A stretch of DNA of 64,000 nt from Escherichia coli (GTDB taxonomy: Bacteria > Pseudomonadota > Gammaproteobacteria > Enterobacterales > Enterobacteriaceae): the NCBI RefSeq assembly GCF_965641715.1, contig NZ_OZ282453.1. One strand, given 5' to 3'. A program made the position numbers and the translations under genes. Each line of letters opens with the position of its first letter. Within the stretch, counting starts at the first letter, position 1. The notes under the pieces are model-generated. The model was not told the origin of the DNA. It did no database searches and worked only from the letters and a program-made list of their open reading frames with translations. Shown here in pieces: positions 2,327 through 58,193 of this stretch.

Positions 2327-4729
2327 TCAGTTGTCTGTTGCACCAACCATACCCGCAAATTTGAGCCATTGTCCTGATGGACTTCTGTTACCGCGGTAGT
2401 GATAAACAAGGATTGCATTTGTTACTCCACCATAGTCAGCTTTATGTGATGTGGTTAAGCGAATTGTATAATCACCATCGGGCAGGTTAAAAACTTCAAT
2501 TACAGTCCCTGCTAATTCAACCGCTCCAAACCCCGTTATATTGTTGATGCTGCCCGCATTGAATCCCATCATATCGCCAAAACCAATCCAGTACTTTTTG
2601 CTGAACGCACCATTTGACCTCAGGTGGTTAATAAATGTGGACATACTCATGCCCATTTCGCCGCCAGTTATGGCTGATGTACGTACCGAAATACTTGGCA
2701 GAGCACTACTCTTCACATAAGAGCTCAGAAGATTTATGACTTCTGTTTTCGTATAAGCATTAACGTTAGCCGCAGTCAACGTTATATCCGCAGTGCCATC
2801 AAACTTCACACCAGCAATTTCCCTTGCAGTCTGCAATTTCGTGGCACTGGCTGCGTTACCCGTTGTATCCTGATTGCCTGCCGCATTCACCCCCGGGATC
2901 AAATCTTTTACTGTATAAATCTGCGCCCAGTCCGACTCAAACCCATACTCATCCCGTGAGGAACGATAAAACAGCCCACCATTTTTATAATTGGCCCTGA
3001 TTTGCAACGTCCGGCAACTTCCACCCCCTGTATAGAAGTTTGCAACAATATAGCTGCTGCCTGTCCGGGTGACATTGTATGCACCAGATTTGGCATTCCA
3101 CGGAACGCCTCCCTCTGACTCTGCGTGCACACCGGACGATCCAAGAGCAAAAGCAGAGACATCTGCAGCGGACAGCCTGATGTCTGATTTCAATGCCTTA
3201 CCATTCACCTTACGACCAGATGGAACCCGGTCATTTGCATTATCATTCACCGCTTTCACCGCCATTGGTGTTGCCGCCAGCGATTCACTGTCACTGTCCG
3301 TGGCACTGCTGAGCTGTACCACCCCCTTTCTCGTCGTGCTCGCATCCTCTAGCGCCACGGCAGATGCAATATCCTCTGCCCGTTTTGCTGCTGTCTCGGC
3401 ACGCGTTGCTGCAGATTCCGACGTACTTTTGCTCTGAGCTGCCGCTGTCGCACTACCAGCTGCCTCTGTCGCCTTCGTGGATGCCGTCGTGGCACTGACC
3501 TTCGCCTCTGACGCCTGTCTTACCGCCTCATCTTTTGAAGCAGACGCCGATGATGCTGATGACGCCGCCGAACTGGCGGACGATGCGGCTGCCGTTTCTG
3601 AGGCTCCTGCGCGGGTTTCCGACGCTTTCGCATTCGTCTCAGATGTCTTCGCTGCGGAAGCAGAACTCGCAGCTGCAGTGGCCTGTTCAGTGGCTTCGCC
3701 AGCCTTCGTTGTGGCTGTTGAAGCGGACGATGCAGCGCTTTCTGCCGATTTTCCGGCGGCAGCGGCACTGGCTACAGCCTCCCCTGCCTTCACTGATGCC
3801 TCACGGGCCGATGATGCAGCCGCGGTTTCTGAGCCTGCCGCAGCTGAGGCACTCTGTCCCGCTGCCGTTTCAGAAGACCTGGCGTTCGTCTCGGACGTTT
3901 TTGCCGCTTTCGCGGAATTGCCTGCCGCTGTTGCCGAGGAAGCTGCGCTACTGGCGCTCGAGGATGCGTTCGTTTCTGATGATTTTGCCGCCTCTTTTGA
4001 AGCCGCCGCATCCCGGGCTGAGGTGGCAGCTTCTGACGCTTTCGTAGTCGCGGTGGATGCAGAAGTGGCTGCTGATTGTTGTGACGCTGCCGCATTCGTT
4101 TCTGACGTTTTCGCGGCACTGGCACTGGTAGCTGCCGCGCTTTTTGAGGACTCTGCAGCGGCAGCACTTTTTGATGCTTCAGTGGCCTTTGTTGATGCCG
4201 TTCCTGCGCTGGAAGTCGCTGACTGAGCCGACGACGCGGCCTGTCCGGCTGACGTGCTGGCTGCGCGTGCTGAGCCTGCAGCATCAGTCGCATGGGTTGC
4301 CGCCTCACGGGCTGATGTGCTGGCATCACTGGCTGACTTCTTCGCGGCTGCCGTGTTCTGTGCCACCACGGACGCGTTACGCGCCACCTCTTCCACCATC
4401 AGCTCAAAACGGCGCAGTGCCTCCGGACGGGCATCATCCTCCGTCATGGCACCGAGAAAATCATTCAGCGTACCGGGTCGGGAATCTTCATACACTGTGA
4501 TGGTCCCGGCATGTGACGGCGGGAATCCTTCCACCAACAGAATAACGCTGTACTGACCGTACTCAACGTCCATGCTGTAACGCCCGGCTTCATCCGGATT
4601 TTCTGAGGCCAGCGTGTTCACCACCACCGTGGTACTGTTACGTTTTGCTTTCAGCTGGATTGTGCAGTTCTGTACCGGTTTTCCTGTGCCGTCTTTCAGT
4701 ACACCTGAAATCTTTACTGCCATATTCAC
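2327..4729 (-). CDS. stf: Side tail fibre protein Stf
   Basis: N-terminus MAVKISGVLKDGTGKPVQNCTIQLKA... lambda Stf-like; long Ala/Ser/Thr-rich repetitive shaft; follows lom and J. Confidence 0.9.
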   Translation of the reverse strand: MNMAVKISGVLKDGTGKPVQNCTIQLKAKRNSTTVVVNTLASENPDEAGRYSMDVEYGQYSVILLVEGFPPSHAGTITVYEDSRPGTLNDFLGAMTEDDARPEALRRFELMVEEVARNASVVAQNTAAAKKSASDASTSAREAATHATDAAGSARAASTSAGQAASSAQSATSSAGTASTKATEASKSAAAAESSKSAAATSASAAKTSETNAAASQQSAATSASTATTKASEAATSARDAAASKEAAKSSETNASSSASSAASSATAAGNSAKAAKTSETNARSSETAAGQSASAAAGSETAAASSAREASVKAGEAVASAAAAGKSAESAASSASTATTKAGEATEQATAAASSASAAKTSETNAKASETRAGASETAAASSASSAASSASSASASKDEAVRQASEAKVSATTASTKATEAAGSATAAAQSKSTSESAATRAETAAKRAEDIASAVALEDASTTRKGVVQLSSATDSDSESLAATPMAVKAVNDNANDRVPSGRKVNGKALKSDIRLSAADVSAFALGSSGVHAESEGGVPWNAKSGAYNVTRTGSSYIVANFYTGGGSCRTLQIRANYKNGGLFYRSSRDEYGFESDWAQIYTVKDLIPGVNAAGNQDTTGNAASATKLQTAREIAGVKFDGTADITLTAANVNAYTKTEVINLLSSYVKSSALPSISVRTSAITGGEMGMSMSTFINHLRSNGAFSKKYWIGFGDMMGFNAGSINNITGFGAVELAGTVIEVFNLPDGDYTIRLTTSHKADYGGVTNAILVYHYRGNRSPSGQWLKFAGMVGATDN

Positions 4730-27617: not shown

Positions 27618-27863
27618 ACCTTTTTTCTCCTGTAAATAAAAAAGAGCCACCAGCGGCCCACCAAAAAACACCCCGTCAAAGACACCTGCACCCACAGATG
27701 CCTTTTGTGTGGTGTTATTCAGATTTGCGCAGTAAAGGCCAGAGAACAACCATCACCATCGCTACCAGCACGCCATCAGCCAGAACCGACATCAGCCGTC
27801 CGGCAAAATCTACTGCCACTACCAGAAACAGCAGGATGGCAGCCAGCACAAGACGTGCACTTT

Positions 27864-29358: not shown

Positions 29359-29435
29359 TGGTCCGCCACCGGGTGCTCGAACCTCGCACAATCAACTTAG
29401 AAGGCTGATGCTCTATCCAGATGAGCTGGTGGCGG
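29359..29435 (-). tRNA. tRNA-Arg (anticodon UCU)-like, phage-encoded; T-stem imperfect
   Basis: Acceptor stem CCGCCAC/GTGGCGG, D-arm GCTC-ATCTGGATA-GAGC, anticodon loop CTTCTAA, 3' ACCA; two mismatches in the T-stem. Confidence 0.55.
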
Positions 29436-29437
29436 AA

Positions 29438-29513
29438 TGGTGGCCCTTGCTGGATTTGAACCAGCGACCTGGCGATTATGAGTCGCTCGCTCTAACCACT
29501 GAGCTAAAGGGCC
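29438..29513 (-). tRNA. ileZ: tRNA-Ile2 (anticodon CAU, ileX/ileZ-like), phage-encoded
   Basis: Minus strand GGCCCTTTAGCTCAGTGGTTAGAGCGAGCGACTCATAATCGCCAGGTCGCTGGTTCAAATCCAGCAAGGGCCACCA is near-identical to recalled E. coli tRNA-Ile2. Confidence 0.85.
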
Positions 29514-32656: not shown

Positions 32657-33019
32657 CTACTCCATTTCAAGTTTAACATCCAGCATTGAAAGGCATCCAT
32701 CAATAAACCCTTCAGCCATCTGTATCTCTATACGTATCAATTTCTCATCTTTTTTGCGAGCTCTTGCAAGCTTTCTTTTCGAGATGCCATACAGGTAATG
32801 GGCCACAATCAAAGAATGCTCGTACGGTTTTCGCTTTTTAAGAAGAGCAAGACAACCTTCAATAATTAATGCATCACTATCTGAACAAGCCTGACGTGTT
32901 TTGCTTGTATAGGGAAGAAGCCCTTTAAACCCAGCAGCTATAGGAGAATAGTCTACTCCTGAACTATCACTCGCCGCCCATGCTCCCCAACGATCCAGAA
33001 CCATTTGAATATCACGCAT
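32657..33019 (-). CDS. Antitermination protein Q (QuuD-like family)
   Basis: MRDIQMVLDRWGAWAA...AEGFIDGCLSMLDVKLEME resembles DLP12 QuuD; position after rusA/DUF968. Confidence 0.75.
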   Translation of the reverse strand: MRDIQMVLDRWGAWAASDSSGVDYSPIAAGFKGLLPYTSKTRQACSDSDALIIEGCLALLKKRKPYEHSLIVAHYLYGISKRKLARARKKDEKLIRIEIQMAEGFIDGCLSMLDVKLEME

Positions 33020-33036
33020 CAACTTTCTCCACAAAA

Positions 33037-34850: not shown

Positions 34851-35240
34851 TCAGGCGGCTGCACCCGCCGGTTTCTCATACTTACTGATAGTGATCTCGA
34901 CCTTCCCTTTCGGGATAACCGGTCCCCACTCCACCAGCATTCTTTTCACCTGTCTGTCGTCTTCCCACACACCCGCGTGGGTCAGGGCGTCAAACAGCGC
35001 CTTGTTATAGTTGTCCAGATCGCGGATCCGGTTATCCGGAGGAAACAACACGATCTCCACTGAAGCAGGTGCCGACGTTGGTTTCGGCAGACGACGTAAC
35101 TGCTCAACTATTGCTGCGCATGCCGCGCTCTGGAATTTGCGCCCCGCTGCGCTTATCAGACTCTTACCAGCAAACGCCCCTTTGTTGGGGTGTCGCCAGT
35201 ACGTGTTCACGCTGGGCGGGAAAGGCAGGATCAGCTTCAT
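34851..35240 (-). CDS. rusA: Holliday junction resolvase RusA
   Basis: 129 aa starting MKLILPFPPSVNTYWRH with conserved acidic residues (DLDNYNKALFDAL). Confidence 0.9.
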   Translation of the reverse strand: MKLILPFPPSVNTYWRHPNKGAFAGKSLISAAGRKFQSAACAAIVEQLRRLPKPTSAPASVEIVLFPPDNRIRDLDNYNKALFDALTHAGVWEDDRQVKRMLVEWGPVIPKGKVEITISKYEKPAGAAA

Positions 35241-35563
35241 ACTTTCAGGCCCCTCTCATGTAACCAGTGGGCTGCACGCAGTCTGGCGTTTTCCTCACCG
35301 GCAAGCAGTGCGCGGATAATCCCGGCTGCCTCGCTGTCGTCGTCCTTCACTGTGGTATGAAGCGTGATACCCCGGGCCACGCCACGCTTTATCGTGATGA
35401 CGCCTTTTTTCTCCAGTGCGCGAAGATGCTCCACCGCTGCATTCACCGAACGGTATCCCAGCATGGCTGCCACCTCCTGATTGGTTGGCGGGAAACCACG
35501 TTCTTTCTGATAAGAAATCAGCATATCCAGCACCTGCTGCTGGCATTGAGTTAACGTCGTCAT
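35237..35563 (-). CDS. LexA-type winged-helix DNA-binding protein
   Basis: LTQCQQQVLDMLISYQKERGFPPTNQEVAAMLGYRSVNAAVEHLRALEKKGVI resembles the LexA N-terminal domain. Confidence 0.6.
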   Translation of the reverse strand: MTTLTQCQQQVLDMLISYQKERGFPPTNQEVAAMLGYRSVNAAVEHLRALEKKGVITIKRGVARGITLHTTVKDDDSEAAGIIRALLAGEENARLRAAHWLHERGLKV

Positions 35564-36057
35564 TAAGCCCCCACGTAATTCCCTGACAGATACCACTCAT
35601 CACCCGATACAGCGCGCTTGCTGCTTTTCCGTAAACACTGCTCACGACGCGCCAGAAAATTGTTTCGTTCTGGCTGGGAGTGGCTTTCACGGAATGCCGC
35701 CATCCACACCGTTGCAGCACGACGGTATAAGCCCCTGGACTCCAGTTCTTCAGCCTGGCGGGTCAGGCACAAAATCACACGGGGATCGTTAGTGCCGACA
35801 TAGAAATTGCGCACAGGTCTGGTTTCACGAACAGATTGTGGTTCCGGCTCCTGCGCTCTCTCAGTCAGGCGCGGGAAATGTCTGCGTGTATCTCCTTCAC
35901 AACGGTGAGCCACACGCCCACTCTGACGTAACTTGCTTGCTGACTGCAGAACGCGCTGCCGTGAGTAACCAGCAAAAGCATCCGCAATGTCTCCGGAAGT
36001 ACACCCCGGATGGGCTTCAATGAATTTCTGAACTTCATTCAAAAGACTCATAATCAC
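35563..36057 (-). CDS. PerC/ANR-like transcriptional regulator
   Basis: C-terminal QAEELESRGLYRRAATVWMAAF motif, PerC-like. Confidence 0.45.
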   Translation of the reverse strand: MIMSLLNEVQKFIEAHPGCTSGDIADAFAGYSRQRVLQSASKLRQSGRVAHRCEGDTRRHFPRLTERAQEPEPQSVRETRPVRNFYVGTNDPRVILCLTRQAEELESRGLYRRAATVWMAAFRESHSQPERNNFLARREQCLRKSSKRAVSGDEWYLSGNYVGA

Positions 36058-36872
36058 CCCCTGAATCCTGCCGGGATCTGGCTGTAGTCCACGTTGTCGT
36101 AACTGGCTTTGAAGTACGGGTCCTCGCGTCTGGCTGCAGATACCGCAGGAACTTCCCAGGATTCTTCGAAATGACGATCCGGACCAAAGAACGTGACAGC
36201 CTGTTTCACAAATTGTGTGCCGCTGTTACCCATCGCAGATACCCAGCCCGCGTAGCGTTTCACACCTTCCAGCATGGTTTCGGGGTTTACCCCCTCATTC
36301 AAACGGGCTTTCCAGGCTTTGAAGGCTGCAGATTTTGAATTACCACCAGCACGTTTGGGATATGCCAGCCATGCCTGCTCAAACTCCGGAGAGTATTCCG
36401 GCCGGTTTGAACGAACTCGCACGGACTCATCAACTGATGCACCAACAGCTATTGGTTCATTGACTGGTTCTTTGACTGGTTCAAAAGAGTGACTGGTTCT
36501 GGGTGAATCTCCTGCACTACCCCCTGGTGCAACTCCTGCACTACCTGGTGAATTTGCTGCACCAGATAGTGAATTATTTGCACTACCCCCTAGTGAATCT
36601 CCTGCACCATCCAGATGAAGGAGATAGATATTACTTGAGTTACCTTTTTCACCTTTCCGGGTGACTTTTTTTACCAGCCCGGACTCACAAAGGGCCGCAA
36701 TATGATTCATCACAGAACGTTTGCTAATCTCGCACTGGTCAGCAATATGCTGGTAGCTGGGCCAGCACTCACCCTGATCGCTGGCATTATCAGCCAGCTT
36801 GATCAGAACCAGTTTTCGCAATGGATTACCCACTCGAATTTTCATCGCTTTAACCATCAGCTCCATACTCAT
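36054..36872 (-). CDS. Phage replication protein (N-terminal HTH, C-terminal DnaT-like domain)
   Basis: N-terminal HTH (SYQHIADQCEISKRSVMNHIAAL); C-terminus ends DYSQIPAGFRG, like host DnaT (QIPPGFRG) at 57453. Confidence 0.7.
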   Translation of the reverse strand: MSMELMVKAMKIRVGNPLRKLVLIKLADNASDQGECWPSYQHIADQCEISKRSVMNHIAALCESGLVKKVTRKGEKGNSSNIYLLHLDGAGDSLGGSANNSLSGAANSPGSAGVAPGGSAGDSPRTSHSFEPVKEPVNEPIAVGASVDESVRVRSNRPEYSPEFEQAWLAYPKRAGGNSKSAAFKAWKARLNEGVNPETMLEGVKRYAGWVSAMGNSGTQFVKQAVTFFGPDRHFEESWEVPAVSAARREDPYFKASYDNVDYSQIPAGFRG

Positions 36873-43445: not shown

Positions 43446-46400
43446 TCACACGCTGCGCCTTCGAGAATATTCATTTAATCGCTGATAACGAACATCTTGC
43501 TCCAGTTGTGGAGCAGCTTGAACAATTTGAAGCAAGCATTGCCCCAACTCTCGAGGCCCCCAGTGTTGTTCGGCAATCACGGCATTCAGCAGGGATAGAG
43601 CGTCCGCAGGATATCGGCTGCAAATATCTGATTCTAGCAAAAGGCGAACGTCGTAGCTAAGGTGTTCGAGCGGTTGCAGCCAGTCCTGCACCACTGCCAA
43701 AGCCGCCGGAAATTCACCTCGGGCAGCAATCACCATACGAGTCAACGATTCGGATATGCGTGGGGTGGCCAAGTTGCGGGACTTTGGCCAAACCTGTTGC
43801 CAAAATGGCTGGACACGATTTTTCCAATACTCCTCGCGCTGATCGCCCGCACCTTCAAGTGCCTGGTATAACGCCTGCGCGGCTACCTCCAGACCTTCTT
43901 GTGGAAGAGCACTAATTGCCGTTCGGAACTCCTCCACGGTATATCCCTCGGTAGGGCCCAGAGCTGCATAAGTCAGGAAAATAGCGAATTGCTGCCGGTG
44001 CTCGCCAAGATCAGAATAGTGATTGGCGCTCTCCAAAAAATCTGACTTGAAAGCTATCAGCAACGGTTCATACAGGCGTGGCGACCAGAGGAAGCCTTCC
44101 CACACAGCTTTTGCTTCGACGGGATTACTCCAAGCAAACAAGGGCAATAGATACTGTTCGGTCCAAGGTCGATCTACGCGAAAAAATGCGATCAGCCGCG
44201 ACCCCAGCAACACCCGACCATGGCGGAATAGCTCTATCTGTACATTACACAATTTGGTGAAAAGTGTTTTCAATTCAACAGGAAGCAAATCATTGTCATT
44301 CGGGTTCTGTTTGAACCATAGGGTGATCAGTGATTGCGTGACATGCCCAATGGGATGATTGATCGCCGTAGAAACAGGATCATAGGTCTCAATTCCGTTT
44401 CGAATGGTGCTAGACTCTGGGCTTGTTTCTATCATCAGAACCCGACGACAAAGGGCCAGTAGAATCTCCTCGTGGCAGAGGATGGTCTTCGAAGCCTCCT
44501 CCATCCACCAAGTGACAGCGTGGGAAATCTCCTGAAGTACTGCGTCAGGCATGTCAAGCACCAACGGTGCGGCGTACCGCCACGAACGCAAAATCATCCC
44601 TGGTTCAGCCCAAGTCTGCAGAGCTTCACGCCACCGACCAACAGGCCACACATCATCTTGTGATAGTTTACGTAACGCATACAGACTGTGAAAAAAGCGC
44701 GTACGGCAAACATCACTCCAAGTGTCCTCATAGAAAGGCAGTCTTTCTGGCATAGGCTTTGCGAGCCATTGCACTAATTCCTGCCACTTACGGGGCGCAA
44801 TGTCGACATCTATACTCTCCTCGAAGCCTGGATCACCGGTTCCGCTCATCCAGTGAGAGAATTCATCACGCTCGTTGGTTGCCAGTTGCCATTTTGGGTA
44901 TGCTGTGGATATTTCCGTCAAACGTGTAGCCGCAGACTCTCCCAAAACAAGGCCCGCTCCCCTGAGCTTCTCTAGACACAACCAGACGGAATGAGCCACC
45001 AAATAATGCCACCTGTCTGCTTCCAAATTATCCTCGTACATCTCGCGCGGAGGCCCTGCCAAGATAGCAGTTTCCAGACGCTCTTGTGCAATTCCTGTCA
45101 GATGTCGTCCCTGCAAAACAAACAGTCTGAATACCTCTCGCCGAGTATCCGTGGCCCACAACCACCATGAACCGTCCTCTAACAACCAATTAACCCACCG
45201 CTCAGGTGGTATGCAGTTGTCTTGGCTTGCGGCAAACAGTGCCAGACGTTTGAAGGTGGGATATGGCAACTCAAACCAATTCTGAGCAATGCGCGAGGCC
45301 TGATCGCTGTCTTTGGCTCGAACGGCTAACCATGAATCCCGAAGTAATTCAATCAGGCTCACCCAATCGCGGAACCCCCGGTTCTGCCAGTGCGGAGTGA
45401 TGGACGGCAAATCCCAATGCGAGCGGTCGTGACGATCGTCGGACTCTCCCAACTCCCGCAACAAGTCCAGTGCATCACGCAACAACTGCTGAAAATCTTC
45501 CAACAGGTATGGCAAGGACGATTTCCATGACTCGTCAGCAAGGTCGAACAGGGTTGAACGTACGTAATCAGCAGTCAGCACCAGCTCCCAATCCACCAAT
45601 TGCTTGATTCGCAAGGGTTCATCAGTGCTGCTCGAATCGTCTTCACTATAGCGAAACGGCCGCCTCAACATAACCTTGGGAGAAAGCAACTCGCGTAACT
45701 CCAAGCGCAATGTAGTCGTCAAGCCTTCATTCTTTAAGCGGTTTTGCCAACGATACAAATCCAGGTTCTGCAATGGCGATTTCACACGACCACTAAGCAG
45801 AAGCCGCCATAAAGTAGACATAGGTGGACCAGGAATAGCCAGGGGGGAATGCAAGAGAATTTCATCTAACTCAGAAGTCTTACGCTCCCGCATCAGTGCT
45901 GCTAAGCGATCTAGTTCGCTCTCAATCAGAAACATCCAACGGTCGTGTATTTGTCCGCCGCGTTCAGCAATCCATATGATCAACCTAGGGTCGCCCAGAT
46001 AACGAACTAGCCAACGGGCTATATGGGACATTACGTCATCCCATTTGCTAGCACTGACACATCCAGAAACCAGCGACATCTGCGGGGCCAGCTCATAGGG
46101 CGCAGGACGCTGAACCAGACTGAATCGGAGTTTCGGGTCAATTTCGACATGCGGAGATACACAAAAGCGTGGCAGATCGCTGTATTTAAATCGTTCGTCC
46201 GAGAAAGCTTTCAATAACCAATCCAGCGGCGGTGCAGGATTGAGTTCCGCAAAGCGTTTTGCTGGTAAACCTGATTTATCTGACAAGGCCCACAACATCC
46301 GACCAACGAAATCGTCCTGACGAGTGCTGTCCTGCGGGCGGGCCAGAGCATGTTTGACGACTATAGCCTCTTTGCCCTGTATACCATCTCGATAAGTATC

Positions 46401-47273
46401 TGCCCAAGCGTGCAACGTTTGATGCAGCACTGAATGATCAGTGGAGCTCGCCGGTACGGTGTAAAGGATAGGAGTGACCCCTTTGGCCTCCCACTCGATG
46501 GCTTTCCGGTGCTCCTGCCCCGGCTCACACTCCCCCAGTGCCCATACTTGTGGTGTGACTTCACCGAGCCTCCGATCTGCTGCAAGCGCATCCATCATGT
46601 AGCGCAGTACCGGGTCGTTGATGCTGTAGCCAACGAAGCAGACCACATAGTTACGAAATAACTCACTCACAAAGCGAGCTGCCCAACGCTCAGTGAGATA
46701 AGCCAAGCCAAAGTCACCGCTGGTAACAACCAGACGATTCAGGGCAGTATCATCCGCCTTTTCCGGTAACAGCCCATGCAGGTATACAAGTCCATCCCAG
46801 CGGCTGTTTTTTGGAATTGGCAGCATCGGCGCTACATAGGCCTGAAAAGCCTGGCCTGTACGTTTAGCTGCCACATGAAAGAGACGGTCAAAGTTGGTAG
46901 TGACCAATCGAAGGGCACCCTCGCGGCTACGGGCTAAACGTAACAGCGCCGCCTGAGTATCAATAGCGCCCCTACGACGGAGCTTTGGCTTAAGGGCTTT
47001 TTCCAACGCGCGTCGGACGGCTATACGCTGCCCTGGTAAGCGCCGTTCCAGCAAATCTAATGTGCCGTCAAATTGCCCACGCTCGAAAACCTCACGCTCA
47101 ATTTCTGAAAGTGTTGTTCCGTTCCTCTGGTAAATTAGTTCTACCAACCCTTTGAAACCAGGTAAACCAGCAGGGTAGGAAATGCCTGCTCCACAGAAGA
47201 ACACAACGCGCCCTTCCTCGTGCGCCTGCAAAAGCTCATCAGGAATATCAGGGCCGTTGGTAATGAATTGCAT
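43446..47273 (-). CDS. SIR2-domain protein, 1275 aa (defence-associated sirtuin-like; N-terminal SIR2 NADase domain + large C-terminal region)
   Basis: N-terminal VVFFCGAGISYPAGLPGF (GAGIS), LVTTNFDRLF and LVYLHGLL motifs; no P-loop seen; AGGAGG RBS. Confidence 0.8.
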   Translation of the reverse strand: MQFITNGPDIPDELLQAHEEGRVVFFCGAGISYPAGLPGFKGLVELIYQRNGTTLSEIEREVFERGQFDGTLDLLERRLPGQRIAVRRALEKALKPKLRRRGAIDTQAALLRLARSREGALRLVTTNFDRLFHVAAKRTGQAFQAYVAPMLPIPKNSRWDGLVYLHGLLPEKADDTALNRLVVTSGDFGLAYLTERWAARFVSELFRNYVVCFVGYSINDPVLRYMMDALAADRRLGEVTPQVWALGECEPGQEHRKAIEWEAKGVTPILYTVPASSTDHSVLHQTLHAWADTYRDGIQGKEAIVVKHALARPQDSTRQDDFVGRMLWALSDKSGLPAKRFAELNPAPPLDWLLKAFSDERFKYSDLPRFCVSPHVEIDPKLRFSLVQRPAPYELAPQMSLVSGCVSASKWDDVMSHIARWLVRYLGDPRLIIWIAERGGQIHDRWMFLIESELDRLAALMRERKTSELDEILLHSPLAIPGPPMSTLWRLLLSGRVKSPLQNLDLYRWQNRLKNEGLTTTLRLELRELLSPKVMLRRPFRYSEDDSSSTDEPLRIKQLVDWELVLTADYVRSTLFDLADESWKSSLPYLLEDFQQLLRDALDLLRELGESDDRHDRSHWDLPSITPHWQNRGFRDWVSLIELLRDSWLAVRAKDSDQASRIAQNWFELPYPTFKRLALFAASQDNCIPPERWVNWLLEDGSWWLWATDTRREVFRLFVLQGRHLTGIAQERLETAILAGPPREMYEDNLEADRWHYLVAHSVWLCLEKLRGAGLVLGESAATRLTEISTAYPKWQLATNERDEFSHWMSGTGDPGFEESIDVDIAPRKWQELVQWLAKPMPERLPFYEDTWSDVCRTRFFHSLYALRKLSQDDVWPVGRWREALQTWAEPGMILRSWRYAAPLVLDMPDAVLQEISHAVTWWMEEASKTILCHEEILLALCRRVLMIETSPESSTIRNGIETYDPVSTAINHPIGHVTQSLITLWFKQNPNDNDLLPVELKTLFTKLCNVQIELFRHGRVLLGSRLIAFFRVDRPWTEQYLLPLFAWSNPVEAKAVWEGFLWSPRLYEPLLIAFKSDFLESANHYSDLGEHRQQFAIFLTYAALGPTEGYTVEEFRTAISALPQEGLEVAAQALYQALEGAGDQREEYWKNRVQPFWQQVWPKSRNLATPRISESLTRMVIAARGEFPAALAVVQDWLQPLEHLSYDVRLLLESDICSRYPADALSLLNAVIAEQHWGPRELGQCLLQIVQAAPQLEQDVRYQRLNEYSRRRSV

Positions 47274-47455: not shown

Positions 47456-48679
47456 TCATTTCGAGCCTGAACGAGTACAAGTAACAATCGATTCAACTCT
47501 CTCCCACCATGCCTGGTAGGCTTTACGCTGTTCTTCTAGATAATCACTCTTGTCATAAACTTGCCATACACCTGGCAGTTTATGACCGAGCATTATTTCA
47601 GCAATATGAGGCGCAGTAAGATCAGAAAAGTTTGTTCGTGCTGTTCGTCTCAAATCATGAAGAGACCAATGAGGAAATTGATACCCCAAACGCCGCCATG
47701 CGTACTGCATTAAATTGTAAGGCAGCGACTGCAATGATGTCCGACCAACTGGTTCCCTGCTTCCTTCCTTAGTAAAAAGCATATCGGAACCGTTGTTCAT
47801 AGAGATAACGTATTTTATAAGCTCTTCAACCGGTTCAATAATGGGCCGCTTTAGCGGTTTGCCTGTTATATCCCCTGTCTTATGTCGTTCTGGTGGTACA
47901 GTCCATATTTTATTAATGAAATCAAAATCGTCCACCTTGGCAGTAATTAGCTCTGAACTACGGCAACCAAAATGCAGCAATAGTTTAATGAAGGCCCGGT
48001 ATTTAGGAACCATTCGAGAACCATCGATCGCAGCATAAAGGATTTTAATTTCATCATGTGTCAGAAACCGTTTCTTCTGACCTTTACGGATATCCATATC
48101 TTTACCCGTGATATCCGACAGCGGGCGAGTTTCAATGAGCTTTCTCTTATACGCCCAGACATGGGCCTGCTTTGCGTTAATTAGCAATCGGTCTGCTATT
48201 GCTGGAGTCTTAGTGCTAAGAGGCTCCAGGACTTCTAACCAATCATGCAATGTAGCTGCATCGTGAGGGATATTCCCGATTTTAGAGAACAGGTGCAGCT
48301 CAAACGAGCGGAGTATCTGTTCAGAACCTTTTTTATTTTTTACACAATATGCTTCATACCAAGCACGGATCACAGATTCTACCGTCATGGCTTCAGTAGC
48401 TTTACGTTTTTCTGCCAGCTTGACCAATCGTGGATTGCGGTTTGACTCGAGTTCACCACGAAGACGGATAACTTCTTCTCTGGCCTCTTTTAGTCCAGTT
48501 GCCGGGTAAGTTCCGATATCAAGACGCTCACCTTTCCCCGCCCACTGATAACGATATTGGAACACTACGCGACCTTTCGGTGATACTCTAACAGACAGAC
48601 CATCACGATCGGATTTAACCAAAACCTTATCACGTTCCTTTCCAACGACTGAACGCAACCACGCATCAGACAGCGCCAT
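47456..48679 (-). CDS. int: Tyrosine recombinase / phage integrase (P4-type)
   Basis: 407 aa; C-terminal catalytic region with HDLRRT and LGHKL...Y motifs; adjacent to host yjjG. Confidence 0.9.
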   Translation of the reverse strand: MALSDAWLRSVVGKERDKVLVKSDRDGLSVRVSPKGRVVFQYRYQWAGKGERLDIGTYPATGLKEAREEVIRLRGELESNRNPRLVKLAEKRKATEAMTVESVIRAWYEAYCVKNKKGSEQILRSFELHLFSKIGNIPHDAATLHDWLEVLEPLSTKTPAIADRLLINAKQAHVWAYKRKLIETRPLSDITGKDMDIRKGQKKRFLTHDEIKILYAAIDGSRMVPKYRAFIKLLLHFGCRSSELITAKVDDFDFINKIWTVPPERHKTGDITGKPLKRPIIEPVEELIKYVISMNNGSDMLFTKEGSREPVGRTSLQSLPYNLMQYAWRRLGYQFPHWSLHDLRRTARTNFSDLTAPHIAEIMLGHKLPGVWQVYDKSDYLEEQRKAYQAWWERVESIVTCTRSGSK

Positions 48680-56913: not shown

Positions 56914-57453
56914 ATGTCTTCCAGAGTTTTGACCCCGGACGTCGTTGGTATTGACGCCCTGGTAAACGATCACCAAACCGTTCTGGCAAAAGCTGAAGGC
57001 GGTGTGGTTGCCGTATTTGCTAACAATGCCCCGGCGTTTTATGCCGTCACGCCTGCACGCCTGGCTGAACTGCTGGCGCTGGAAGAAAAGCTGGCGCGTC
57101 CGGGAAGCGATGTCGATCTGGACGATCAACTCTATCAGGAACCGCAAGCCGCTCCCGTTGCTGTACCCATGGGGAAATTCGCCATGTATCCGGACTGGCA
57201 ACCCGATGCCGATTTTATCCGCCTGGCGGCGCTATGGGGCGTGGCGCTAAGAGAGCCGGTGACCACCGAAGAACTGGCCTCATTCATTGCCTACTGGCAG
57301 GCGGAAGGTAAAGTTTTTCACCATGTGCAGTGGCAACAAAAACTGGCGCGCAGCCTGCAAATCGGTCGTGCCAGCAACGGCGGACTGCCGAAACGAGATG
57401 TGAATACGGTCAGTGAACCTGACAGCCAAATTCCACCAGGATTCAGAGGGTAA
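56914..57453 (+). CDS. dnaT: Primosomal protein DnaT
   Basis: 179 aa from [16 protein letters not shown], ending QIPPGFRG. Confidence 0.95.
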
Positions 57454-57455
57454 CG

Positions 57456-58193
57456 ATGAAAAACGTTGGCGACCTGATGCAACGCCTGCAAAAAATGATG
57501 CCTGCCCATATCAAACCTGCATTCAAAACGGGTGAAGAGCTACTGGCCTGGCAGAAAGAACAAGGGGCGATCCGCTCCGCCGCTCTCGAACGTGAAAATC
57601 GGGCGATGAAAATGCAGCGCACCTTTAACCGCTCCGGTATTCGTCCACTGCATCAGAACTGCTCCTTTGAGAACTATCGCGTTGAGTGTGAAGGGCAGAT
57701 GAATGCGTTAAGCAAAGCGCGCCAGTATGTCGAAGAGTTTGACGGCAACATCGCCAGCTTCATCTTTTCTGGTAAGCCAGGAACCGGCAAAAACCATCTG
57801 GCGGCGGCAATCTGCAACGAGCTGCTGCTACGCGGTAAATCCGTATTGATCATCACCGTGGCCGATATTATGTCGGCGATGAAAGATACCTTCAGGAATA
57901 GCGATACCAGCGAAGAACAACTGCTTAACGATCTGAGCAACGTTGATCTGCTGGTGATCGATGAGATCGGCGTGCAGACCGAATCGAAATACGAAAAAGT
58001 GATCATCAACCAGATCGTCGATCGCCGCTCTTCTTCCAAACGCCCAACCGGGATGCTGACCAACAGTAATATGGAAGAGATGACCAAGTTGCTGGGCGAA
58101 CGCGTGATGGACCGTATGCGCCTGGGTAACAGTTTGTGGGTGATCTTCAACTGGGATAGCTACCGTAGCCGTGTAACAGGTAAAGAGTATTAA
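57456..58193 (+). CDS. dnaC: Replicative helicase loader DnaC
   Basis: 245 aa with Walker A GKPGTGKNHLA. Confidence 0.95.
   Translation: MKNVGDLMQRLQKMMPAHIKPAFKTGEELLAWQKEQGAIRSAALERENRAMKMQRTFNRSGIRPLHQNCSFENYRVECEGQMNALSKARQYVEEFDGNIASFIFSGKPGTGKNHLAAAICNELLLRGKSVLIITVADIMSAMKDTFRNSDTSEEQLLNDLSNVDLLVIDEIGVQTESKYEKVIINQIVDRRSSSKRPTGMLTNSNMEEMTKLLGERVMDRMRLGNSLWVIFNWDSYRSRVTGKEY

Follow-up and report, generated by a model that had tools for sequence, protein, structure and literature searches.

The prophage replication initiator gene

The 64,000-nucleotide (nt) stretch of Escherichia coli DNA analyzed here (contig NZ_OZ282453.1 of assembly GCF_965641715.1; hereafter the window) carries a prophage as well as the host genes dnaT and dnaC. 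The gene under study encodes the replication initiator of this prophage, a protein of 272 amino acids (aa) whose last residues match the C-terminus of the host primosomal protein DnaT. The gene and the features found within it were:

36054–36872, minus strand: replication initiator gene from the list of open reading frames (ORFs), 272 aa plus stop, ending ...YDNVDYSQIPAGFRG
36672–36824, minus strand: N-terminal winged-helix DNA-binding domain, aa 17–67 (Pfam HTH_36, E=1.8e-11, 44 bits, cutoff 25)
36503–36607: iteron-like array of ~5 copies, period 21–24 bp (GTGAATCTCCTGCACTACC...), coding a Gly/Ser-rich linker (repeat search and Tandem Repeats Finder, TRF)
36444–36499: short direct repeats TGACTGGTTC, 3–4 copies at ~12 nt spacing, adjoining the iterons (repeat search and TRF, period 12)
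36153–36425, minus strand: helical C-terminal domain, aa ~150–240 (...YPKRAGGNSK...FFGP...W), labeled 'FFGP' here, not DnaT-like and at most weakly DnaD-like
36057–36128, minus strand: C-terminal tail REDPYFKASYDNVDYSQIPAGFRG, aa 249–272, predicted to be disordered (model)
36057–36077, minus strand: DnaT-type core IPAGFRG within the tail

The protein is already known and annotated, sometimes as 'primosomal protein I'. By tblastn, SfV Orf39 (the 'replication protein' of this Shigella phage), the corresponding protein of mEp460 and many proteins of Shiga toxin (Stx) 2c phages shared 100% identity with it, and it was 98.2% identical to the HTH_36 protein of Stx2a_WGPS2 (AP012537). The latter is the representative of 'Eru6', a non-lambdoid replication region of Stx phages, and the replication mechanism of Eru phages was described as wholly unknown by the authors who defined it (Llarena et al. 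2022, PMC8951638). Profile searches assigned the whole protein to PHROG_270 'replication initiation protein' (E=1.7e-88) and aa 1–140 to PHROG_8540 'O-like' (E=7.8e-62). HTH_36 was the sole Pfam domain above its cutoff; DnaD_N (PF21984) gave a weak match of 24.3 bits, under its cutoff, and Phage_rep_O gave none. The gene comes after cI/cro/cII-like (YmfL-like) genes, in the same order as in SfV.

A role as prophage replication initiator, lambda-O-like in function, is well supported by the PHROG_270 and HTH_36 matches, by the position shared with SfV and by the iterons within the gene, as in lambda O. The original prediction, made from the DNA letters alone, had described a 272-aa phage replication protein with an N-terminal helix-turn-helix and a Gly/Ser-rich linker, and these parts of it were borne out, the linker being coded by the iteron array. 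TRF resolved that array as 4.6 copies with a period of 24. The intragenic array is the presumed origin of replication, and the annotated lambda iterons (ori-lambda) lie within gene O. A composition check detected no strongly AT-rich unwinding element beside the repeats, where the local GC content was 42–45%.

Similarity to DnaT is confined to the tail

The host counterpart lies in the same window:

56914–57453, plus strand: host dnaT, coding 179 aa counted from the ATG (347 bits against the NCBIfam DnaT equivalog; Pfam DnaT at aa 89–154)
57391–57450, plus strand: part coding the host DnaT tail, which is conserved in DnaT orthologues

The initiator's C-terminal domain had been predicted to be DnaT-like, or to mimic DnaT, and this did not hold. 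The DnaT DNA-binding domain PF17948, a strong match in both host DnaT and the initiator of phage SPN1S, gave no match in the window initiator, nor did the NCBIfam DnaT equivalog NF002770. The hhalign probability for the initiator C-terminal domain against DnaT was 6%, and a hidden Markov model (HMM) search of PDB sequences with that domain returned no meaningful match. AlphaFold2 modeled the FFGP domain as a three-helix bundle with a predicted local distance difference test (pLDDT) score of 70–86, followed by the disordered tail. The three-helix domain of DnaT that binds single-stranded DNA (ssDNA; residues ~84–153) is not present in the window initiator, and neither the N-terminal oligomerisation domain of DnaT nor its acidic PriB-binding linker was found there, the N-terminus being HTH_36. 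Homologues of the FFGP domain in Burkholderia and Vibrio phages carry tails of other types.

BLASTP of the initiator against host DnaT paired the nine terminal residues and detected no similarity outside them; taken to the letter, this is the outcome that the original prediction had named as its refutation. In those nine, SQIPAGFRG of the initiator faces SQIPPGFRG of DnaT, with 8/9 identical and a pair E-value of 0.009, a match that is weak when taken alone. The predicted correspondence between the initiator terminus, DYSQIPAGFRG, and the C-terminal signature of host DnaT was nevertheless correct, and the signature is conserved across DnaT orthologues. The idea of DnaT mimicry survives in a narrower form, in which the mimic would be a tail of 7–24 aa that behaves, in the family-level comparisons given below, as a portable and selected peptide.

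Distribution and conservation of the tail

Over the last 20 residues of 104 Enterobacteriaceae DnaT sequences the consensus was [KR]RD.N..S.PD..IP.GFRG. Only 177 DnaT relatives came out of a full HMMER scan over 1.84 billion representative proteins, and orthologues at 33–50% identity keep [IV]P.GF[RK] at or near the terminus. Klebsiella homologues of the phage initiator end ...TRDPNQISEPDKTIPAGFRG, in which 14/20 positions equal DnaT.

With the 29-aa DnaT tail as query, tblastn matched 49 of 50,697 phage records. Three of the 49 hold DnaT itself (chromosomal or unannotated), and the rest were matched under replication, DNA-binding or unnamed proteins. The 13 matches inspected were all C-termini of replication initiators in phages of Escherichia, Salmonella, Klebsiella, Shigella or Pantoea, among them Rac YdaU, Gifsy-1/2 O, the SPN1S initiator and 75/02-Stx gp15. 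Two degenerate DNA patterns (tail plus stop codon) were then scanned over IMG/VR, giving at least 120 matches each, and 160 loci were retrieved; in 160/160 the pattern formed the end of a long ORF. By chance, the 22 specified bases would be expected about once or less in ~10^11 bases, the collection size being an assumption.

Two subtypes of the tail were distinguished: PD, ending ...PDxxIPxGFRG-stop, with 17 clusters of initiator bodies, and DY, ending ...DYxxIPxGFRG-stop, which is that of the window initiator, with 8. More than 20 initiator bodies, unrelated to one another, bear the tail in phages of enterobacteria, among them bodies with Pfam DnaT (SPN1S), Phage_rep_O (Gifsy), Phg_2220_C (Pantoea phage AH07) or HTH_36 and several without a Pfam match. 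The longer DY-subtype form reads ...REDPxFKxSYxNVDYSxIPxGFRG (loci L154–L233; PD-subtype loci are L034–L113). This subtype looks like a hybrid, its proximal part resembling the helicase-associated tail class described below and its end the DnaT core. Some copies tolerate 2–7 extra residues after the motif.

Among 12 independent sequences, the invariant residues P, G, F, R and G were coded by 4, 4, 2, 4 and 3 synonymous codons, respectively. SPN1S and AH07 code Arg-Gly as CGC GGT, with the peptide unchanged. Such synonymous turnover at invariant residues means that selection acts on the peptide. Together, these comparisons show that the initiator tail is homologous to that of DnaT, portable between proteins and selected at the protein level.

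Two resemblances of the motif were also considered. A reading of 'QIPPGF' as a clamp-binding motif was rejected because several residues (S, Q, T, E, K, L, A) occupy the place of the Gln. The antiterminator Q of the prophage (32657–33034, minus strand; Pfam Phage_antitermQ, E=5e-52) contains an internal N-terminal motif, VDYSPIAAGFKGLLP, that equals the initiator tail VDYSQIPAGFRG at 9/12 positions and is kept in that Q family (variants VEWSSVAAGFKGLIP); this resemblance may be coincidence.

Helicase loaders and tail type

The two genes that bear on helicase loading in the window are:

35563–36057, minus strand: gene in the slot of the loader of related phages, a PerC-family/winged helix-turn-helix regulator (Pfam PerC, E=1e-9; PHROG_1324 'transcriptional activator')
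57456–58193, plus strand: host dnaC, beginning 2 nt past the stop of dnaT, presumed tail partner

Searches of the 64-kb window by tblastn with DnaC-type, divergent IstB-type, DnaB-like and lambda P queries found only host dnaC. The prophage was thus correctly predicted to have no P/DnaC-like loader gene, and it has no DnaB-like gene either. No loader or helicase is listed in the annotated near-identical prophage of E. coli EC416 or in the early-gene region of SfV. The ATG of the regulator lies 2 nt past the initiator stop, and AGGGGG of the Arg-Gly codons falls at the would-be ribosome-binding site.

The host dnaT/dnaC spacing equals the layout of phage initiator/dnaC-like pairs. The host junction (57418–57476) reads ..ttcagaggg TAA cg ATGAAAAAC, and the Gifsy-1/2 O/dnaC-like junction (loci L011 and L012, ~3525–3585) reads ..ttcaggggg TAA cg ATGAAAAAC, laid out in the same way. 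Such like junctions would fit a common origin of the dnaT 3' end plus dnaC with a phage initiator-loader module. In two database proteins, P0239 (425 aa) and P0293 (409 aa), DnaT reads through into DnaC with loss of the stop codon; formally DnaT-DnaC fusions, they are probably sequencing or assembly variants.

Across annotated phages and metagenome loci, the type of tail went together with what follows the initiator gene:

DnaT-type tail, then nothing recognizable: SfV, SPN1S, BUCT711, ST11-OXA245phi3.2, HannyBb, Evi, AH07, L031
DnaT-type tail, then a DnaC copy: Rac, 75/02-Stx, ST974 and ST846 Klebsiella phages, Gifsy-1/2
FFGP body with tail ..SGFSEQDYGxSxxNW or ..LAGLGAMSDKFGKSSDKLTF, then a divergent IstB-type loader and a DnaB-family helicase: Stx2_14040, Stx1_14040, phiP27, AsXd-1
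True DnaT domain with a lambda-O-like (LDWNNTDWIxG) or acidic tail, then a lambda-P-like gene: L020, L022, L026, L024

The phage DnaC copies are 47–50% identical to host DnaC over the full length, including the N-terminal DnaB-binding part, and the divergent IstB-type loaders show 30–34% identity in the AAA+ region only. An own P-like gene or helicase accompanied 1/16 DnaT-type tails vs. 9/11 other tails (Fisher p ~1e-4 over phylogenetically non-independent loci).

In IMG/VR, a DnaC-type gene, 59–99% identical to the phage DnaC copies, started 3–21 nt past the stop in 62/78 informative PD-subtype loci and was lacking in the other 16, and a P-like or DnaB-like gene was found in 0/80 PD-subtype loci, anywhere in the locus. 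For the DY subtype, any loader or helicase was found in 0/71. In the reverse test, an ORF with a DnaT-type tail preceded 77/77 YdaV-type dnaC copies, with a 6-nt spacer. Within single body clusters some members had the dnaC copy and others did not, a pattern to be expected if host DnaC can stand in for it.

A natural tail swap was found between the window initiator and that of AsXd-1: their full-length identity is 68%, running as far as ...DY(S/G)Q, past which the window initiator ends in IPAGFRG and the AsXd-1 initiator in SDCNW. In AsXd-1 a loader and a DnaB-like helicase follow downstream, whereas the window phage has neither. As P-type phages also use host DnaB yet lack the DnaT-type tail, the tail appears to track the loader rather than the helicase, and by these sequence comparisons tail type is strictly associated with loader type across phages. 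Locus L029, in which an initiator with a DnaT-type tail is followed by a short P-like gene, was an apparent exception; frameshifted dnaC-like 3' remnants (..VGVLTNLNH.., ..SFDWESYRSNV..) lie at 3990–4300 between the two genes and are a decayed loader copy.

A possible role of the tail in helicase loading

These observations suggest a mechanism in which the N-terminal winged helix would bind the ~5 iterons within the initiator's own gene, while the disordered tail, ending in the IPAGFRG that is also the conserved terminal peptide of the host restart protein DnaT, would serve as a short docking peptide for the host helicase-loading complex, likeliest via DnaC and possibly via DnaB6·DnaC6. The initiator would in this way bring host DnaB·DnaC straight to the phage origin, as DnaT does at an abandoned fork, and this would account for the lack of a P-, DnaC- or DnaB-like gene in the phage. 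We give this docking of host DnaC·DnaB by the initiator tail, as DnaT's own tail may do, a probability of about 0.5. That the tail binds a protein at all, that its partner is DnaC or DnaB·DnaC, and that the DnaT tail does the same job are points that we infer from the comparisons above. Across phages, the most economical reading would be that initiator tails generally are docking peptides for the loader, with the DnaT type docking DnaC-type loaders, whether the host protein or a phage copy.

The DnaC·DnaB loader-helicase complex is the likely target rather than the PriA/PriB primosome. DnaT binds PriA via its C-terminal domain and PriB via its acidic linker (PMC13377028), and for neither region was a counterpart detected in the phage protein. 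The original prediction, that the host primosome is recruited through DnaT mimicry, stands in part: borrowing of the host loading machinery is the best available reading, and it would proceed via the tail and not via a domain, probably toward DnaC·DnaB and not PriA/PriB.

A broader version can be put forward more tentatively, and we hold it a little less probable than its negation. The DnaT tail may be the missing DnaC·DnaB recruiter of the restart preprimosome, and phage initiators may use that peptide too, as one 'word' in a modular code of tails, where the last 7–30 residues would specify a DnaC-type loader, a lambda-P-type loader or a phage loader-helicase pair. The loader-less phages SfV, mEp460 and the Stx 'Eru6' group would then plug directly into host DnaC, and a common ancestry would link the phage module of initiator tail and dnaC to the dnaT-dnaC operon of the host. 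The tail is absent from the fitted crystal model of DnaT (residues 84–153) and undescribed in the 2026 cryo-electron microscopy (cryo-EM) paper on the preprimosome, which notes that dnaT interacts genetically with dnaC and states that how DnaT recruits DnaB/DnaC is unknown (PMC13377028).

Several points weigh against docking to the loader. The cryo-EM authors favor the N-terminal domain of DnaT as DnaB/DnaC recruiter, by analogy with DnaA (PMC13377028). Published biochemistry gives the DnaT tail other roles, in self-association and in cooperative ssDNA binding: removing the last 18 aa turns the DnaT trimer into a dimer (Szymanski et al. 2013, as summarized in PMC5314882), and truncation to residues 84–153 roughly halves ssDNA affinity and lowers cooperativity (PMC4132743). 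When AlphaFold2 modeled DnaC joined through a 30-aa Gly/Ser linker to the last 30 aa of DnaT, DnaC was folded and the tail had a pLDDT of 40–50 with no confident docking, an outcome between uninformative and negative; this was a single test with monomeric DnaC in the absence of DnaB and a 32-row alignment, judged without predicted aligned error or coordinates. In the comparative data, the DY subtype never stood beside a dnaC copy and the PD subtype usually did, and L029 combines a DnaT-type tail with a P-like gene. The loci compared are not independent of one another phylogenetically, and their source is mosaic phages, whose neighboring genes are inherited together; this would also confound any signal of covariation between tail variants and clades of DnaC copies.

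The main rival, and the nearest to the wording of the original prediction, is that the tail imitates the DnaT-DnaT contact of DnaT's own tail and so binds the host DnaT core, so that the initiator would recruit DnaT and, via DnaT, DnaB·DnaC, and replication would need dnaT. The trimer-to-dimer transition (PMC5314882) suggests that the tail contacts another DnaT protomer; the tail is confined to phages of hosts having DnaT, and the link to DnaC-type loaders fits here too, since DnaT works with DnaC. The near-obligate adjacency of the tail-coding end to a dnaC copy (62/78, and 77/77 in reverse) would, however, have no reason; other tail classes pair with an adjacent loader, which makes the adaptor step a special case, and most bodies that bear the tail have no DnaT core, leaving no tail self-association there. 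We regard DnaT recruitment as unlikely. Only slightly less probable still is direct binding of host DnaB, independent of the loader, as by domain I of DnaA. No phage with a DnaT-type tail has a helicase of its own (DnaB-like gene in 0/160 IMG/VR loci), so that host DnaB has to serve; a DnaB-like helicase, where encoded by the phage, goes with other tails; and the AlphaFold2 fusion predicted no docking to DnaC. Yet lambda-P-type phages, which also use host DnaB, have lambda-O-like or acidic tails, so that the tail follows the loader, and the tight linkage to dnaC copies would be left unexplained.

Clearly less probable than either is that the terminus is no interaction element at all, being instead a nucleotide-level feature (a ribosome-binding site or a recombination 'linker'), a degradation or regulatory tag, or a product of chance. 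In the window phage, as in host dnaT/dnaC and phage initiator/dnaC-like pairs, the Arg-Gly codons AGGGGG/AGAGGG precede the next ATG by 5–9 nt and could act as a Shine-Dalgarno sequence, and identical tails occur on different bodies, as at mosaic junctions. The synonymous-codon analysis led to rejection of the Shine-Dalgarno and recombination-linker explanations: the invariant residues use nearly all synonymous codons, and CGC GGT of SPN1S and AH07 is not Shine-Dalgarno-like. Moreover, the tail is kept where the next gene starts ~120 nt off, and its core survives in DnaT orthologues at 33–50% identity. Chance is excluded by the 160/160 ORF-terminal pattern matches, and no support was found for a degron.

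Docking of the tail to host DnaC·DnaB thus remains the reading that we prefer. Literature searches turned up no account of the shared tail, of its tie to the type of loader or of how loader-less phages of this class work. The handover from PriA-PriB-DnaT to DnaB·DnaC, stated to be unknown in the 2026 paper (PMC13377028), becomes directly testable, as the phage comparison points to a small, easily mutated heptapeptide, IP.GFRG, other than the DnaT N-terminal domain. It also offers the first hypothesis of a mechanism for a widespread group of lambdoid phages with one replication gene and no loader, which includes serotype-converting Shigella phages and Shiga-toxin 'Eru6' phages; in Stx phages the replication rate influences toxin output. 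If the tail code is true, the helicase-loading dependency of a phage could be read from the last residues of its initiator.

Other features of the prophage

Three further observations were made in the prophage. Between its early-left genes and the integrase (47456–48679), a 1275-aa ORF at 43446–47273 on the minus strand encodes a full-length Dsr1 defence-associated sirtuin (PADLOC Dsr1, 2733 bits; Pfam SIR2_2 domain), anti-phage defence cargo of the prophage; three different small genes occupy the corresponding place in the near-identical EC416 prophage. A 119-aa protein encoded next to RusA in the early operon (35237–35596, minus strand) has a LexA DNA-binding domain only (Pfam LexA_DNA_bind, E=4e-19), with no S24 peptidase domain, which would make it LexA-like but non-cleavable. 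Three tRNA genes on the minus strand (27767–27858, 29359–29435 and 29438–29513) lie upstream of the late genes, a typical arrangement in Stx-like lambdoid phages: two tRNA-Arg(tct), of which one is unusually long (92 nt), and one with a CAT anticodon, whose EC416 equivalent is annotated as tRNA-Ile.

Comparison with known systems

The window initiator resembles lambda O in its position in the early right operon, in its N-terminal DNA-binding domain and in the iterons of the initiator gene that code a flexible linker, and in both cases the C-terminal part must hand over to a helicase loader. It differs in having HTH_36 instead of Phage_rep_O and in the lack of a P gene, its loader being presumably host DnaC. 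The lambda O terminus, ...LTNTDWIYGVDL, belongs to another tail class, which co-occurs with P-like genes, whereas the tail of the window initiator is of the host DnaT type.

E. coli DnaT (primosomal protein i of PriA-PriB-DnaT restart) shares with the window initiator the terminal IP.GFRG-COOH, with 8/9 residues, and a disordered tail that follows a helical domain, and both proteins must act upstream of DnaB·DnaC loading. The N-terminal domain, the acidic PriB-binding linker and the ssDNA-binding C-terminal domain are all DnaT's only, and the window initiator presumably acts at a sequence-specific origin, whereas DnaT acts at PriA-marked forks. O-like proteins were previously linked to DnaT at the domain level (Brezellec et al. 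2017, PMC5509034). Like the window protein, that study's domesticated DopC/DopE pair and the phage initiators bearing a true DnaT C-terminal domain are O-like HTH_36 proteins that share parts with DnaT; they adjoin a loader gene. SPN1S-type initiators have the Pfam DnaT domain and the same tail, whereas the window protein has the tail only, on an unrelated domain.

Rac YdaU/YdaV and Gifsy-1/2 O/DnaC-homologue have the DnaT-type tail on the initiator, as in the window. They differ in a full-length DnaC copy (47–50% identical to that of the host) 2–6 nt past the initiator stop, where the window phage has none and a longer DY tail. In concept, the tail also compares with the C-terminal tail of the ssDNA-binding protein SSB (DDDIPF) and with clamp-binding motifs, which are likewise short, conserved, disordered terminal peptides that are portable and tether partners. 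The acidic-then-Ile-Pro-x-x-Phe pattern of the tail loosely recalls the SSB C-terminus, although the sequence is another one and SSB ends in Phe-COOH vs. Arg-Gly in the phage initiator.

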